Positions 17,756 to 27,695 of a DNA stretch of 58,560 nt are shown piece by piece. A program made the position numbers and the translations under genes. The notes beneath the pieces were generated by a model that did not search any database, was not told the DNA's origin, and saw only the letters and a list, made by a program, of their open reading frames with translations. The stretch comes from Chloroflexota bacterium. Lineage in GTDB: Bacteria; Chloroflexota; Dormibacteria; CF-121. Within the stretch, counting starts at the first letter, position 1. Each line of letters opens with the position of its first letter. The DNA is taken from positions 1-58,560 of the forward strand of contig VBDZ01000003.1 in assembly GCA_005881215.1 (NCBI GenBank), written 5' to 3'.

Positions 17756-20020
17756 TCAGGCCGCTGTCGTCAGGTCGATCGCCTCGGGCACGGCCCGTTG
17801 CGGGATGGTGAACGTGAAAGTGCTGCCCAGCCCGGGCGAGCTCTTCACCCAGATCCGTCCGCCGTGCATCTCGACCAGCTGGCGAGAGATCGCCAGGCCG
17901 AGGCCCGTCCCCTGGTACTTACCGCTGATCCCGCTCTTTCCCTGTTGAAAGCTTTCGAAGATGCGCTCCGCATCCTCGGCCGGCACCCCGATGCCGGTGT
18001 CGCGCACGTTGATGCGCAGCTCCGCCCCCTGGCGCTCCGCCGTCACCCGGACGCTGCCGGATTCGGTGAACTTGATGGCGTTACCCAGCAGGTTCAGCAA
18101 CACCTGCTTGAGCTTTGGACCGTCGGCAAAGACCCGCCCCACCTCGGCGGAAACGCTGGCGCTAAGCTCCAGCCCCTTGGTCTTCGCCAGCGAGCTGACG
18201 CTTTCGACGCACTCCGAAATCAGGGGCTCGATGTCGACTTCGCCGCGGTGCAGCTGCGCCTTCCCCGCCTCCAGTTTCGAGATGTCGAGCAGGTCGTTGA
18301 TCAACGCCAGCAGGTGCTGACCGTTCTGGGCGATGATGTCGACGTCCTGCCGCTGCTCACGGGTGAGGACTCCCCCGTCCCCTTCGAGCATCAGCTGGGA
18401 GAAGCCGAGGATCGAGTTCAGCGGCGTGCGTAGCTCGTGGCTCATGTTGGCAAGAAATTCCGACTTGTGCTGATTCGCGCGATGGAGCTCGGTATTGACG
18501 GCCCCTAACCGGGCCGTCTGCTCGGTCGCCAGGTGGAACAGGTGCGCCTCCTGGATGGCGGTGGCGGCGTGCTGCGCGAACAGCGTCAGGAGCTCGATGG
18601 TGTTGCGGTCCAGCGGGCGCCGGTGGTACACAGCGAGCACCCCAAGCAGCTGGTCGCCGACGACGAGCGGGAAGCCGGCGAACGCCTGGATGCCTTCCTC
18701 CGCCATCCATGGGCTGAGTCCGACCTGACGGTGATTCGCCGGGTCGTTGGTGATGATGGGCACCCGCAGCTCGGCCACCTGGCCGACCTCACTCATGCCG
18801 CGCTCGACCCGGCTGGGGACCGGCGGGGCATTCCGGGTGGTGTGATGACCGGCTCGTCGCCAGAGCGCGCCGTCGCTCGGCTCGAGCAGCCACACCTGCG
18901 CCGCCGCGAAGCCGAGATTGCCGGTGAGCGCGCTGGCCACGATGTCGAGCAGCTCCGGCTCGAACAACTTCTGGTTCATCTGGTCGATCGATTGGTTCAG
19001 TAGCTCCAGGCGACGGGCGCGTTTCTCGGTCTCCTCGAAGAGCCGGACGTTCCGCAGGGCGACGGCCAGCTGCTGGGCCAGGACCTCGAGCGCCTCCACT
19101 TCCCATTTCGTCAGCCGGCGCTGATCGTCGCGAGTCTGCAGATGCAGGACGCCGAAGACCTTCCCATCGAGGATGACCGGCGTTCCGAACACGGCTGCAT
19201 AACGTGTCTGGTTGAGCGCCGGCGCGTCGAACAGGGGCGGCCGGGTGAGCATCGTAAAGCGCCGCTCCCGCACTGCCCGGCCCACGATCCCCTCCCCGGC
19301 GGAGATCGAGGATCCCTCGATGGCCTCGGGCAGGCCGACCGCCGCTCGCAGGGTGAAGACGCCGCGATCTTCGTCCAGGAGCACTACCGCGCCCGAGTCC
19401 ATCTGGAGCAGCTCCATACCGCAGCGGATGACGGTGTTCAACATGTGCGCCACGTCCAGCTGGCCGACCAGCTCGCCGAGCACGTCGCGGAGCTGCTCGG
19501 TCTGGTCGAGGCGCCGCCGCGTGCCCCGGATCTCGGTATTCATGGCCCGCACCGCCGCCCCCAGGCCGGTGATGACGGCGACGGTCGGGATCGCTCGCAG
19601 GACGGCGTCGCGCACCGAGATGGCCAGGCCCAGGTCGCTCGTCTGGAAGAGGATGATGCCACTGGTCAGAAACAGGCTGGTGCCGATCCCACCCCAGAGG
19701 TCGAACCGGAAGATCGCCTCGGCCGCCACCAGCGCGTAAAGCAGGTAAGGAAGGCTCGACGACGGCGTAGCGAACAGCAGGATCCAGCCGCTCACCACCA
19801 GGTGATCGAGTACCAGCAGGAGGACGGCCATCGGTCGGGCGAAGCGAGGGACCGCCTTCTTCTGGATGGCCAGCGCGGCGACCCCGTTGCACGCCCCCAG
19901 GAGTCCGGCCAGCACGACGGTGATCGGCACCGAGGCGGAGGGCAGCCAGAGCAGCAGGCCGAAGGGAATGGCCAGCGCGACGAAGCGGAGCCTGACGAAT
20001 TGGCGATCGAGGGCAGTCAT
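17756..20020 (-). CDS. Membrane sensor histidine kinase: TM sensor, two GAF domains, HisKA and HATPase
   Basis: About 5 TM; two GAF-like segments; EFLANMSHELRTPLN, NLLGNAIKFT, DTGIG, GTGLGL. Confidence 0.93.
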   Translation of the reverse strand: MTALDRQFVRLRFVALAIPFGLLLWLPSASVPITVVLAGLLGACNGVAALAIQKKAVPRFARPMAVLLLVLDHLVVSGWILLFATPSSSLPYLLYALVAAEAIFRFDLWGGIGTSLFLTSGIILFQTSDLGLAISVRDAVLRAIPTVAVITGLGAAVRAMNTEIRGTRRRLDQTEQLRDVLGELVGQLDVAHMLNTVIRCGMELLQMDSGAVVLLDEDRGVFTLRAAVGLPEAIEGSSISAGEGIVGRAVRERRFTMLTRPPLFDAPALNQTRYAAVFGTPVILDGKVFGVLHLQTRDDQRRLTKWEVEALEVLAQQLAVALRNVRLFEETEKRARRLELLNQSIDQMNQKLFEPELLDIVASALTGNLGFAAAQVWLLEPSDGALWRRAGHHTTRNAPPVPSRVERGMSEVGQVAELRVPIITNDPANHRQVGLSPWMAEEGIQAFAGFPLVVGDQLLGVLAVYHRRPLDRNTIELLTLFAQHAATAIQEAHLFHLATEQTARLGAVNTELHRANQHKSEFLANMSHELRTPLNSILGFSQLMLEGDGGVLTREQRQDVDIIAQNGQHLLALINDLLDISKLEAGKAQLHRGEVDIEPLISECVESVSSLAKTKGLELSASVSAEVGRVFADGPKLKQVLLNLLGNAIKFTESGSVRVTAERQGAELRINVRDTGIGVPAEDAERIFESFQQGKSGISGKYQGTGLGLAISRQLVEMHGGRIWVKSSPGLGSTFTFTIPQRAVPEAIDLTTAA

Positions 20021-20035: not shown

Positions 20036-22483
20036 CTAGGCGGCCTGGGTGGTTTGAAGGTTGTTGATCATCTCGAGGAAGCGGTCCTTGCCGAAGTCCC
20101 CCTTCTGGATGATCGACTGGATATTCCCCTGCAGGCGCTCGCGATCCTCGCTGGTGATGTTTTTCGCCGTATAGATAAGGATGGGGATCTGGCTGGCGGC
20201 CGGGTCCTCCCGCAGTTTCGACACCACTTCGAAGCCGTCGACATCCGGCATCATCAGATCGAGGATGATCAGGTCAGGCTTCTTCTTCAGAGCCAACTCG
20301 AGGCCGGCCTTGCCACCGTCGGCAACGATGACCTCCATGTTGAACGGCTTGAGCATGGCCTTCACCAGCCGGATGTTCTGCGGGTCGTCATCGACGATCA
20401 GGATCGATGACGGCGTTTTCTTCCCCCGCTTGCCATCGGCCAGGAGGTCGAACTTCACCATCATCTGCAGCAGCTGCTGCCGGTCGATCGGCTTGGTGAG
20501 GAAGTCGGCCTGACCGATGTCGAACGGCAGCGATTCTTTGTTGATCTTTGAGGTGAGTACGATCGGAATGTCCTTCGTCTTCGACTCGCGACGCAGGTCG
20601 TAGACGAGGCCACTGCCACCGTTGGGCGGCAGCTGGGTGTCGATCAATACGGCGAGCGGCTGCAGCTGCACCGCTTTGCGTAGCGCCTCCTGGGCACTGG
20701 CCGCGATCACCACCTCGTAGCCCGCGTGGCTGAGGAACGGCTCGATCCGCTCCTTGACCGCCGGGTCGTTGTCGGCCACCAGGATGACGGGCGGCTTGCT
20801 GCCGCCACCCACGGGTGGCATCATCTGGACCGGCCGCTCCTGGATGCCGGCCTCCTGCTTGGCGAACTCGATCAGCTCGCGGATGTGCTCGACCAGGCGC
20901 TTGCCACTCTCGTTGATGTGGGCCACGAATTCCCGACGTTCCTCCGGCGTCGTCTTGTTCGCTTTCTCGTCGAGCAGGATCTCGGAGAAGCCGATGATCG
21001 CATTGAGCGGCGAATTGAGGTCGTGGCTCTGGTCGTAGATCACCCGGAACTTCGCCTCGAAGTCGCGCTTCGCCTGGGTGAGCGCCGGCGCCGCATCCTT
21101 GTTCTTTCCACTAGCCGAAAGCTCGGTCTTGAGCCCGTCGAGCTGCGCCTGCATGGCGCGCTTTTCGGCCTCGTAGCGGGCCAGCACCTGGCTGGTTGGC
21201 GGACCGCTGCCGGCGGCCTTGCGGGCCTCCTCCAGCTGGAGCTTGAGCGAGGCCTTCTCCCGATGCCAGGCCTGCTCCAGCTCCTTCGCCTCGTTGGCGC
21301 GCCGGCTGTGGAGCTCGTTGGTCTCGGCCATCATCTCTGAGAGCTGCCCCTGGACCCGCTCCAGGTCGACTTTCAACTGGTTCTTCTCGGAGGTGAGCCG
21401 CTGCTCCCGGCCCGTCCACGCTTCGGCCTTGCGGCCGGTTTCGCCGGCGAGATCCGCGTGCAGCGCCTTGATCTTCTCGTAGTCCTGCTGCATGGCCGCC
21501 AGCTTCGCCACCGCGTCCTGCACTTGCTTCTTGAGTCCGGCTTTCTCCTCGGCGACGGAGGCTTCCCGGCTCTGCCAGTCCTTCTCCAGCGCCTTGACCT
21601 TGGTCAGCAGCGCCGAGCGCTCGTCGCTGAGCCGCTGGAACTCCGCCTCGGCCTTGTCGAGGTCGGCGGCCTTTTTGCGCGCCTCGTCCAGCTGTCCCTG
21701 GAGCAGCTTGCGATCCGCCTTGAACTGGGCGTCCGCCGCCTGGCTCCCCTGCTCCAGCCGGGCCACGTCGGCGATCAGCCGCTGGCGCTCGGCCTGCCAT
21801 TTCTCGCGTGCCGCCTTGAGCGGCTCGATCTCCGCCTGCACGGCTTTGAGCTGTTGCTGCAGCTGGGCGCTCAGGTCGGTCAGCCGGGTTTTGTCCTGGG
21901 TGAGCTGGGCCCGGGCCTTCTGCCATTCCTGTTCCAGCTCCGCCTGCTTGCCGACGGCGGCATCGCGGTCCTTGAGCAGGGTCTCGCGGTCCATCGCCCA
22001 CTGGAGCTGAGCGGACTGCAGCGTGTCGAGGTCCTCCTGGGCGAGCTTGAGGTCGGACCGGATCTTCTTCTGGTCGTTCTCGAATTTTTGCGCCGCCTGC
22101 ATCCGCTCCTGTTCGAGCTGGCGGAGCTGGCCGCGCCGCTCCTCGTCGCGGCTCTTGGATCGAGTGACGTCATCCTTCAGCCGGCCGAGCTCGACCTCGG
22201 CTCGGTCGTGACTCTGCTGCAGGTCCTGGTGCCCCTGCTTGAGGGCCTCATGCTGGTCGAGCAGCGCCTGGCGATCCATGGCCCACTGCAGCTGCGCGTT
22301 CTGGAGTTCGTCCAGCTCCTGCTGCTTTTCGGCCAGCTGGCGCTTGGTCAGGGCAAGCTCTTTCTCCTTCTCTTCGAGCTGGCCGCCGATGTCTTCCTGC
22401 AGCGCCTGGAGATGGGTGATGAACTCCTGGTTCTGTTGCAGGATGTCGGCGAACGACTTCGCCTTGGGCGCTTCGGGAGCCAT
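20036..22483 (-). CDS. ~490-aa coiled coil, HisKA/DHp without HATPase, two receiver domains
   Basis: Heptad-rich K/E/Q/L N-terminus; QSHDLNSPLNAIIGFSEILL; a short linker leads directly to two receivers (LIDTQL..TKP; ILDLMMP..QKG); no N/G1/G2 boxes. Confidence 0.88.
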   Translation of the reverse strand: MAPEAPKAKSFADILQQNQEFITHLQALQEDIGGQLEEKEKELALTKRQLAEKQQELDELQNAQLQWAMDRQALLDQHEALKQGHQDLQQSHDRAEVELGRLKDDVTRSKSRDEERRGQLRQLEQERMQAAQKFENDQKKIRSDLKLAQEDLDTLQSAQLQWAMDRETLLKDRDAAVGKQAELEQEWQKARAQLTQDKTRLTDLSAQLQQQLKAVQAEIEPLKAAREKWQAERQRLIADVARLEQGSQAADAQFKADRKLLQGQLDEARKKAADLDKAEAEFQRLSDERSALLTKVKALEKDWQSREASVAEEKAGLKKQVQDAVAKLAAMQQDYEKIKALHADLAGETGRKAEAWTGREQRLTSEKNQLKVDLERVQGQLSEMMAETNELHSRRANEAKELEQAWHREKASLKLQLEEARKAAGSGPPTSQVLARYEAEKRAMQAQLDGLKTELSASGKNKDAAPALTQAKRDFEAKFRVIYDQSHDLNSPLNAIIGFSEILLDEKANKTTPEERREFVAHINESGKRLVEHIRELIEFAKQEAGIQERPVQMMPPVGGGSKPPVILVADNDPAVKERIEPFLSHAGYEVVIAASAQEALRKAVQLQPLAVLIDTQLPPNGGSGLVYDLRRESKTKDIPIVLTSKINKESLPFDIGQADFLTKPIDRQQLLQMMVKFDLLADGKRGKKTPSSILIVDDDPQNIRLVKAMLKPFNMEVIVADGGKAGLELALKKKPDLIILDLMMPDVDGFEVVSKLREDPAASQIPILIYTAKNITSEDRERLQGNIQSIIQKGDFGKDRFLEMINNLQTTQAA

Positions 22484-22848
22484 CAGGCCGCCTTCCGACC
22501 TTGCTGGAGGTAGCGCTCGACCGCCGCGCGCATGGCATCGAGGTGGGCGCTCATCGCCCCCAGCTGATCGACCCGTTCCTGTTCGAGCTGGCGGAGCTGT
22601 TCGTGCCGCTCGCTGTCGCGCTGGTTGGCGTGCCGCAACTCCTCCTGGAGGCGGGCGATTTCGGCCTGGGCCTGGTCGTGGGAAAACTTGAGCTCATCGA
22701 GTTCCTTTTTGCGCGCCTCGTGCTCGTCGACCAGGCCCTGGAGATTGGCGACCAGCTCCTGGTTGAGCTGCAGGATCTGCGTGTAAGGATGGCTGGACTT
22801 CGACAGAGACTCCCCCATTCGGCTGGGCTTCGAGGGCTGCTCGCTCAT
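22483..22848 (-). CDS. 121-aa coiled-coil protein paralogous to the N-terminus of the 815-aa neighbour
   Basis: MSEQPSKP..YTQILQLNQELVANLQGL..SHDQAQAEIARL..RDSERHEQLRQLEQER..; TGATG overlaps at both ends. Confidence 0.85.
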   Translation of the reverse strand: MSEQPSKPSRMGESLSKSSHPYTQILQLNQELVANLQGLVDEHEARKKELDELKFSHDQAQAEIARLQEELRHANQRDSERHEQLRQLEQERVDQLGAMSAHLDAMRAAVERYLQQGRKAA

Positions 22849-23202
22849 CAGGCGGTCTTCAGCCGTCCCTGTTGCAGGTAGCGGGTTACCTCCCCGGGGA
22901 GGCCCTGGGGATCGACCGGCTTGGGGATGTAGCCGTCGCATCCGGCGCCCAGGATCTTCTCCCGGTCCCCGGCCATGGCATGGGCGGTCAGCGCCACGAC
23001 CACCACCCCGGCCAACCGCGCGTCGGAGCGGATCTTGCGGGTAACCGCCAGGCCGTCCTCCCCGGGAAGCTGGATATCCATCAGGACGATGTCGGGCAGC
23101 TCGCGGGTCATTTCGGCCAGGCATTCCGCGCCGCTGCCCGCCTTGCGCACCGAAAAGCCCTTCTTTTCCAGGAGGAACTGGGCCAGGCGCAAATTTACCG
23201 GG

Positions 23203-27695
<4,493 letters not shown>

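Follow-up and report, generated by a model that had tools for sequence, protein, structure and literature searches.

Spo0B, ChpT and PhyT control sporulation, the cell cycle and the general stress response, and, to our knowledge, all known histidine phosphotransferases that originate from kinases are small proteins that have kept a degenerate ATPase domain. ChpT and Spo0B are dimeric phosphotransferases derived from histidine kinases, which are unable to use ATP and operate between two receivers in a His-Asp-His-Asp relay (PMC3433190). PhyT moves phosphate from several kinases via a single-domain receiver to a final receiver and holds the latter in a complex (PMC5898713). RedE, a component of the RedCDEF system of Myxococcus, does not autophosphorylate; its His is phosphorylated by a dual-receiver protein, and it dephosphorylates another receiver (PMC2755868). 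In the kinase ShkA from Caulobacter, a pseudo-receiver and a linker tether the receiver onto the DHp domain and gate phosphotransfer, and autophosphorylation in trans has been predicted for this enzyme (PMC6969517). FrzS is a rod-like scaffold whose localisation is governed by an atypical receiver that cannot be phosphorylated (PMC1974792, PMC9811614). Here, we consider a protein of 815 amino acids from a Chloroflexota bacterium of the class Dormibacteria (GenBank assembly GCA_005881215.1), in which a predicted coiled-coil rod is followed by a DHp domain with a conserved His, a pseudo-receiver and a canonical receiver, and which contains no ATPase domain. Its gene occupies positions 20036..22483 of a stretch of 58,560 nucleotides of contig VBDZ01000003.1 (hereafter, the window). 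This gene and all the other features of the window given below with their coordinates lie on the minus strand.

The likeness of this protein to ChpT and Spo0B consists of a DHp-type hairpin with its His and of descent from a kinase, while its function is one that we infer. In ChpT and Spo0B, an ATPase-like alpha/beta domain persists in a degenerate form, whereas the target has a pseudo-receiver in its place, and it is not a member of the ChpT, Spo0B or PhyT families because their degenerate ATPase domain is gone. Furthermore, these two are small stand-alone proteins, and the target adds a rod of about 415 amino acids in front and its own receiver behind. The logic of the PhyT circuit, which runs from the Pak kinases through SdrG and PhyT to PhyR in the general stress response of alphaproteobacteria, matches the relay proposed below. 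PhyT, however, is anchored in the membrane, still has a catalytic domain, though a degenerate one, and carries a DHp of the HRxxN family, which was described for the Pak kinases (PMC5898713). Its final receiver, PhyR, forms a protein of its own and has a sigma-like output, whereas that of the target is fused to it and the rod is the sole candidate output. RedE has retained its HATPase_c in a conserved form, requires ADP or ATP for its phosphatase activity and has neither a rod nor fused receivers.

By the order of domains, the target resembles ShkA: both have a DHp, a pseudo-receiver with a defective acidic pair and a kept Asp, a conserved linker of about 25 amino acids and a canonical receiver. 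Unlike the target, which is devoid of an ATPase domain and carries the rod in front, ShkA possesses this domain in a working form and is not extended at its N-terminus. The pseudo-receiver of ShkA binds cyclic di-GMP and its linker has a DDR motif; the target linker reads DLLADGKR. The likeness is one of domain order, and ShkA was not among the 60 listed sequence matches to the pseudo-receiver of the target. FrzS and AglZ, the polar scaffolds of Myxococcus, combine a receiver-type domain with a long coiled coil, as the target does; in FrzS, the receiver is N-terminal, so that the order is reversed, there is neither a DHp nor a canonical receiver, and no sequence relationship between FrzS and the target was detected. 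The “incomplete histidine kinases” of P2CS, with HisKA and without HATPase, belong to the same class (bioRxiv 10.64898/2026.02.27.708494), but this is a catch-all label without a mechanism, while the family considered here has a defined lineage, an operon and added domains. The features that appear to be new are the full removal of the ATPase domain, the conserved pseudo-receiver in its place, the long rod and the fused final receiver. Public records name the protein “response regulator” or “CheY-like chemotaxis protein”, and these names miss the architecture with a rod and an ATPase-less DHp and should be corrected.

A preliminary description of this DNA, made from the sequence, had read the open reading frame 20036-22483 as a coiled coil fused to a His-retaining DHp, a linker of about 20 residues and two receivers, with no ATPase domain between the DHp and the receivers. 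The search against Pfam agreed with this in its main points. HisKA (PF00512) was found at residues 482–546 (E 1.9e-13, 50.7 bits against a cut-off of 26.9) with His487 in its H-box, and two stretches of the protein matched Response_reg. No match of the target to HATPase_c (PF02518) was obtained even at E <= 0.1, and the search may be considered sensitive enough, because three neighbouring kinases gave HATPase_c at E of about 1e-30 to 1e-34 in the same scan. There was no Pfam match to HPt (PF01627) in the target, and no NCBIfam model reached its cut-off. Between the end of the DHp, near residue 546, and strand beta1 of the first receiver (REC1), starting from residue 566, there is a linker of about 18 residues (17–18 in the feature map, 20795..20845). 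Its length is close to that given in the preliminary description, and it takes the place of the ATP-binding (CA) domain of a kinase, of roughly 150 amino acids.

Two AlphaFold2 monomer models were calculated (predicted template modelling score, pTM, 0.33 and 0.40). In both of them, only receiver folds, i.e. no Bergerat fold, follow the DHp, and Foldseek comparison of both with PDB gave receiver proteins and no kinase ATPase fold among the 50 best matches listed. Taken together, Pfam, both models and Foldseek rule out that the linker or REC1 hides an ATPase fold. The lack of the domain is common to the relatives: HATPase_c was found by Pfam in none of the 16 aligned cluster representatives, and none of 69 family loci fetched from species-representative genomes contains a G2 box. 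Within its own genome, the target is the sole HisKA out of the 27 detected by Pfam that has no adjoining HATPase_c, besides one cut by a contig end; each of the others has HATPase_c on its contig, contigs with HATPase_c only being left aside.

The DHp helical hairpin covers residues 471–546 (20846..21073; Pfam PF00512 and AlphaFold2). Its helices were modelled at residues 465–504 and 513–544, with His487, the phospho-acceptor position (codon 21023..21025), on helix 1. The H-box SHDLNSPLNAIIGFSEILL carries this residue in the local context SHDLNSPLN. His487 is invariant in the 16 cluster representatives (alignment A1), in which identity to the target goes down to 34%, and in A2, which aligns 33 sequences from genome loci, its conservation is at least 90%; of the 71 related loci in which the DHp is complete, 69 have the His. 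The next position (H+1) is Asp488 in the target and Asp or Glu in operon-type orthologues, and it is T, H, A, R, L or S in orphan paralogues, which have no kinase neighbours. Position H+4 is Ser or Thr throughout the family and Ser in the target. It is known for HisKA that an acidic residue at H+1 is needed for kinase activity, and T or N at H+4 for phosphatase activity (bioRxiv 10.64898/2026.02.27.708494).

The one exception to the conservation of the His is the second paralogue of genus g100 (two loci, one of them at L079:3868-4935), in which Tyr replaces the phospho-acceptor His in PEHLYALKTDLNTITGFS (EHLYALKTDLN). The pseudokinase DivL also has Tyr at this position. At least one lineage of paralogues has thus abandoned phospho-His chemistry and yet retained the module of DHp, pseudo-receiver and receiver.

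Two receiver folds were confirmed behind the DHp, and only the second proved to be canonical. REC1 (residues 564–676, 20456..20794) has D571 at the first acidic position, D615, T644 and K664, and Asn572 at the second metal-binding position, as aligned to canonical receivers. A pseudo-receiver is defined as a receiver fold without at least one of the five active-site residues (PMC12632262), and REC1 is one by this definition because Asn572 occupies the position of the second metal-binding Asp. This position varies across the family (N, P, H, I or A), four of the 16 representatives have Glu instead of D615 at the acceptor position, and helix alpha4 is nearly absent in the AlphaFold2 model. REC2 (residues 693–806, 20066..20407) has all five catalytic residues, D698, D699, D742, T772 and K794, which are invariant or nearly so in A1 and A2; the codon of its acceptor D742 is at 20258-20260. 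The two receivers are joined by the conserved linker KFDLLADGKRGKK (20408..20455), in which D679, A682 and D683 are invariant in A1. Mean identity among 28 orthologues is 98% in the DHp, in REC1 and in the inter-receiver linker, 95% in REC2 and 81% in the rod. These alignments show very strong purifying selection on the DHp, the pseudo-receiver and the linker between the receivers.

The rod (residues 11–424, 21212..22453) was delimited using AlphaFold2 helices, heptad harmonics, a duplication and orthologue indels. The preliminary description had assigned about 490 residues to the coiled coil. The rod was confirmed, and its proper length is about 415 amino acids; the earlier figure is too long because two Gly/Pro hinges and helix 1 of the DHp had been counted in. 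AlphaFold2, given an alignment of 16 sequences, predicts two very long helices at residues 11–261 and 273–424 with a pLDDT of about 70–79, two (beta-alpha)5 domains behind the DHp hairpin, and a short helix at 433–456 in the hinge region (residues 425–470, 21074..21211), flanked by the breaks GSGPP and SGKNKDAAP; this hinge region is missing from most paralogues. Fourier analysis of hydrophobicity in residues 11–424 revealed harmonics at periods of 3.5 (z 4.4) and 2.33 (z 5.0), neither of which was found in the receivers; a simple score of heptad a and d positions had not separated the rod from the globular parts, and the harmonics were used instead. Residues 1–480 consist of A, Q, L, E, K and R by 69% and contain 1.2% Pro. 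Pfam matches to coiled-coil families were weak and all below the cut-off, both in the target and in the 16 representatives.

The internal duplication noticed earlier in the rod holds: residues 35–126 compared with 133–218 gave a Smith-Waterman score of 119, against 59 +/- 7.5 for the shuffled sequence. Comparison with shuffled sequences was required to detect it, as self-comparison of the rod by BLASTP gave the identity match only. The recurring Trp motifs were likewise confirmed. All seven Trp residues of the protein (67, 162, 187, 229, 303, 356 and 406) are situated in the rod, and each is followed by Arg or Lys within 2–4 residues (W-x(1-3)-R/K); W67 and W162 belong to QLQWAMDR motifs. The N-terminal head (about residues 10–30) is conserved and common to all paralogues, in which the rod or N-terminal extension ranges from about 200 to 575 amino acids. 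Rod indels among orthologues are of 7, 11, 39 and 49 amino acids. The 49-residue insertion (seven heptads), present in the 864-amino-acid orthologues of some species, is a tandem copy of about residues 74–122. All of these lengths can be composed of heptads and hendecads, in keeping with a coiled coil whose register must be preserved. If the rod is one continuous coil, a two-stranded coil would be about 60 nm long.

A word-index search of JGI, ENA and NCBI assemblies gave more than 100 protein clusters at 93–100% identity, all with HisKA + Response_reg architecture only, on contigs of up to 434 kb, and assigned to Candidatus Dormibacteraeota or “Chloroflexi”. Among 1.84 billion cluster representatives searched by HMMER, only about 15 clusters match across DHp-REC-REC (43–82% identity), the match being C-terminal, behind an N-terminal extension of 200–575 amino acids; the remaining matches are through the receivers alone. 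The family was found at E <= 1e-60 in 43 of 201 sampled Dormibacteria genomes, with 1–3 paralogues in each. All the carriers belong to one GTDB family with five genera, every sampled genome of which is positive, and no match at this threshold was obtained in the other families of the class in the same sample. In 151 genomes from across the phylum, matches spanning DHp-REC-REC came from the same Dormibacteria family only. The full-length protein has 814–815 amino acids in most species, and the distance from the phospho-His position to the Lys of REC1 is 166–179 amino acids in all 69 loci with a locatable H-box. Thus, by comparison of the sequences, the gene is real and conserved, and the loss of the ATPase domain is ancient, fixed and lineage-wide rather than a local deletion.

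Gene copies with 64–91% identity were also noticed in metagenome-assembled genome records titled Candidatus Binatus, uncultured Actinomycetes, Candidatus Eisenbacteria, Gemmatimonadaceae and Candidatus Acidoferrum. These records are probably mislabelled or contaminated bins.

The sole relatives found outside the lineage are full HisKA-HATPase-REC-REC hybrid kinases. Four loci, in a cyanobacterium, an acidobacterium, a member of Caldilineae and a deltaproteobacterium, share KPIDRQQLLQ with the target and match it from the DHp to the C-terminus with 31–37% identity; all of them encode ordinary hybrid kinases with HisKA, an ATPase domain bearing a G2 box and two canonical receivers. The preliminary description had allowed for a local deletion or misassembly should all homologues carry a HATPase; as it turned out, 69 loci are without it, and only these relatives of 31–37% identity keep it. 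The simplest history suggested by the sequences would be that a HisKA-HATPase-REC-REC ancestor lost the ATPase domain and gained a rod in front.

The target is the fifth of six genes of a putative operon, joined by start/stop overlaps or by gaps of a few bases. The first gene (25629..27695) encodes the kinase HK1 with a hydrophobic N-terminus, two GAF domains, HisKA and HATPase. It is followed by HK2 (23203..25632), a soluble hybrid kinase of the composition pseudoREC-REC-HisKA-HATPase-pseudoREC-degenerate REC, by a stand-alone receiver with intact acceptor Asp, Thr and Lys (22848..23297), and by a coiled-coil protein of 121 amino acids (22483..22848), which is a paralogue of the rod head. The target (20036..22483), whose ATG overlaps the stop codon of this upstream gene (TGATG), precedes HK3 (17756..20020), a kinase with several hydrophobic N-terminal segments, two GAF domains, HisKA and HATPase. 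The hydrophobic N-terminal segments of HK1 and HK3 are probably membrane-spanning. Downstream of the operon, there is a convergent gene of a GDT1 transporter, and G+C content is 64–70% across the window. The gene order and the start/stop overlaps are kept in two other genera, and the order is kept in most of about 40 orthologous loci. Pfam detected no HPt domain in any of the six operon proteins.

The 121-amino-acid protein has 49% identity (BLASTP, E 2e-13) to the rod head and residues 72–128 of the target. Its gene is translationally coupled on both sides, with TGATG at each junction, and is present in most orthologous loci; it is hidden inside a longer spurious open reading frame. The stand-alone receiver has its best NCBIfam matches among the internal receivers of hybrid kinases (BarA, HrmK, TorS). 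The reading frame of this receiver overlaps the 3′ end of HK2 by about 95 nucleotides in another frame; since its 24 N-terminal residues are conserved in another genus, this may be a true overlap and not an error in the called start. As for HK2 itself, one of its four receiver-like domains is intact; the first has Asn at the acceptor position and no Lys, the third has Glu at the acceptor position, the fourth is eroded, and the C-terminus of the protein is Arg-rich.

The DHp of the target is closest to that of HK2 from its own operon (35 of 71 residues identical) among the 26 other HisKA domains of the genome compared with it. After the His, helix 1 reads NAIIGFSEILL and hardly differs from those of HK1 and HK2, which suggests docking of the same receivers. 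With three kinases and a stand-alone receiver in the operon, and no HPt, a role as a phosphotransferase or phosphate sink, already proposed in the preliminary description, is the natural reading and remains plausible, the His being kept in nearly all the related loci. Taken together, the conserved His, the kinase-like docking surface, the fused canonical receiver and the operon without HPt fit best a node of the Spo0B/ChpT/PhyT type. In our opinion, there is about an even chance, judging by analogy with these systems, that the target is a histidine phosphotransfer or phosphatase node carried on a rod, with Asp742 of its own receiver as the endpoint.

According to this scheme, the rod would dimerise in parallel, joining two DHp hairpins into the usual four-helix bundle. 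The GAF-regulated kinases of the operon would autophosphorylate and charge a receiver Asp, most likely that of the stand-alone receiver or that of the intact receiver of HK2. His487 might then take the phosphoryl group from Asp~P by reverse transfer, like Spo0B, ChpT and PhyT, and hand it to Asp742 of the same protein, or the group might be hydrolysed there, so that the target would be the His2-Asp2 half of a His-Asp-His-Asp relay and also the endpoint of the relay. The pseudo-receiver, standing at the position of the lost ATPase domain, would probably gate access to the DHp, and the output might be a phosphorylation-dependent change in the binding partners or location of the rod or the pseudo-receiver. 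The architecture of the target and its conservation are established, while we infer that it is a dimer, which partners it has, in which direction phosphate flows and what the output is. If the relay is true, it would be a compact natural example of a hybrid kinase turned into a phosphotransfer or scaffold node and would offer the first mechanistic insight into signalling in Dormibacteria, which are abundant in soil and have no cultured member.

Several points weigh against this scheme. Asp488 at H+1 is kept in all operon orthologues and lost only in orphan paralogues; with this pattern, phosphorylation in trans by the ATPase of a partner fits as well as reverse transfer. The statement of the preliminary description that the protein cannot autophosphorylate is, therefore, correct in cis, where no ATP-binding domain is available, and does not extend to reactions in trans, since Asp488 is retained. 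The residue at H+4 is Ser and not Thr or Asn of the phosphatase motif. The paralogue with Tyr instead of His means that at least some members of the family work without phosphotransfer. Pfam found no output or effector domain in the operon proteins, and the AlphaFold2 monomers (pTM 0.33 and 0.40) give no confident arrangement of domains, including docking of the receivers on the DHp. Finally, the organism is uncultured.

An unlikely alternative is that the target is a hemi-kinase or a modulator of kinases, whose DHp pairs with that of one of the operon kinases, HK2 being the likeliest partner, to give a heterodimer. The ATPase domain of the partner would then phosphorylate His487 in trans, the phosphate passing to Asp742, or would be titrated or inhibited, and such titration would resemble cross-regulation of the RetS-GacS type. 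The main reason to consider this is the behaviour of position H+1, at which an acidic residue (D or E) is kept in operon orthologues and lost in orphan paralogues having no kinase neighbours. In addition, HK2 is ahead of 25 other HisKA domains in its similarity to the target DHp, and many HisKA kinases autophosphorylate in trans within a dimer. Paralogous DHp domains, however, usually evolve to avoid heterodimers, a long parallel rod favours homodimers, and there is no stand-alone ATPase-only gene in the operon. A split kinase with a stand-alone ATPase partner in the operon is rejected on the same ground.

The isolated DHp of EnvZ can act as a phosphatase. It might be supposed that the target is a dedicated phosphatase or phosphate sink, its ATPase-less DHp dephosphorylating receiver~P and REC2 draining phosphate, so that the signal is shortened or reset; we consider this still less probable. 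The docking surface on DHp helix 1, which is the same as in the operon kinases, the conservation of Ser or Thr at H+4 across the family and the Tyr-for-His paralogue, showing that the scaffold can function without phospho-His, agree with it, and RedE is a precedent of a non-autophosphorylating phosphatase similar to histidine kinases (PMC2755868). At the same time, the His is kept almost universally, though the phosphatase activity of HisKA proteins does not strictly need it, as was stated for RedE, with EnvZ and NtrB also cited (PMC2755868). The canonical phosphatase residue is Thr or Asn, not Ser, and a pure sink would need neither a conserved rod of 415 amino acids nor a pseudo-receiver with 98% conservation.

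Comparably doubtful is the idea that the rod, beyond being a dimerisation stalk, is a spatial device about 60 nm long, a dimeric ruler or a polar beacon. The head at its distal end would co-assemble with the 121-amino-acid mini-paralogue or be capped by it, and the proximal head, made up of the DHp, the pseudo-receiver and the receiver, would directly convert the phosphorylation state of the three-kinase relay into assembly, localisation or recruitment of partners. If true, this would be a signalling cytoskeletal element with built-in histidine phosphotransfer, restricted to one Dormibacteria family and represented by 1–3 specialised paralogues per sampled genome.

The view stressed in the preliminary description, that the target is primarily a filament-forming or cytoskeletal scaffold, whose rod polymerises, perhaps together with the 121-amino-acid paralogue, and whose signalling head decorates the polymer, seems more improbable again. 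The long rod with its heptad periodicity, the length of 814–815 amino acids held in most species with indels of heptad or hendecad units (7, 11, 39 and 49 amino acids), the presumably co-transcribed mini-paralogue of the rod head and the N-terminal head common to all paralogues would all suit a polymer. They have to be set against a rod length of about 200 to 575 amino acids among paralogues and the position of the rod as the least conserved part of the protein (81%). No intermediate-filament-like domain was found above the Pfam cut-off, the Filament model giving no match in the target and a single one among the 16 relatives, with E 1.8e-4, a weak value where a coiled-coil model is concerned; besides, many signalling proteins that form no filaments have dimeric coiled-coil stalks. 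As to an artefact, namely a recent deletion, a frameshifted pseudogene or a misassembled ordinary hybrid kinase, it has next to no chance and is ruled out by more than 100 clusters of the same architecture, the same spacing in 69 loci and the distribution over 43 genomes, the frame being intact and the conservation strong, with the ATPase domain found only in distant relatives of other phyla and nothing found in its favour.

Two further, orphan paralogues, of 532 (C105:13737-15335) and 663 (C83:553-2544) amino acids, are encoded in the same genome. Pfam no longer detects HisKA in these two shorter proteins, and the His is kept in both. The gene of the former lies 30–40 nucleotides downstream of dnaE and that of the latter likewise follows uvrBAC. 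This arrangement recurs within the genus, where adjacency to uvrC was recorded in 22 loci and adjacency to dnaE in three, and in two other genera examined, there was neither; for this reason, it may be shared synteny only and not a link with DNA metabolism. The C-terminal dipeptide Ala-Ala is present in four of the six operon proteins (HK1, the 121-amino-acid protein, the target and HK3) and in all three paralogues. It is the commonest C-terminal dipeptide in the crude gene set of this genome (100 of 2140, 4.7%), and four such ends out of six would be expected by chance with a probability of about 7e-5. These ends may be a degradation signal common to the C-termini of these proteins, or they may reflect a habit of composition in this genome.

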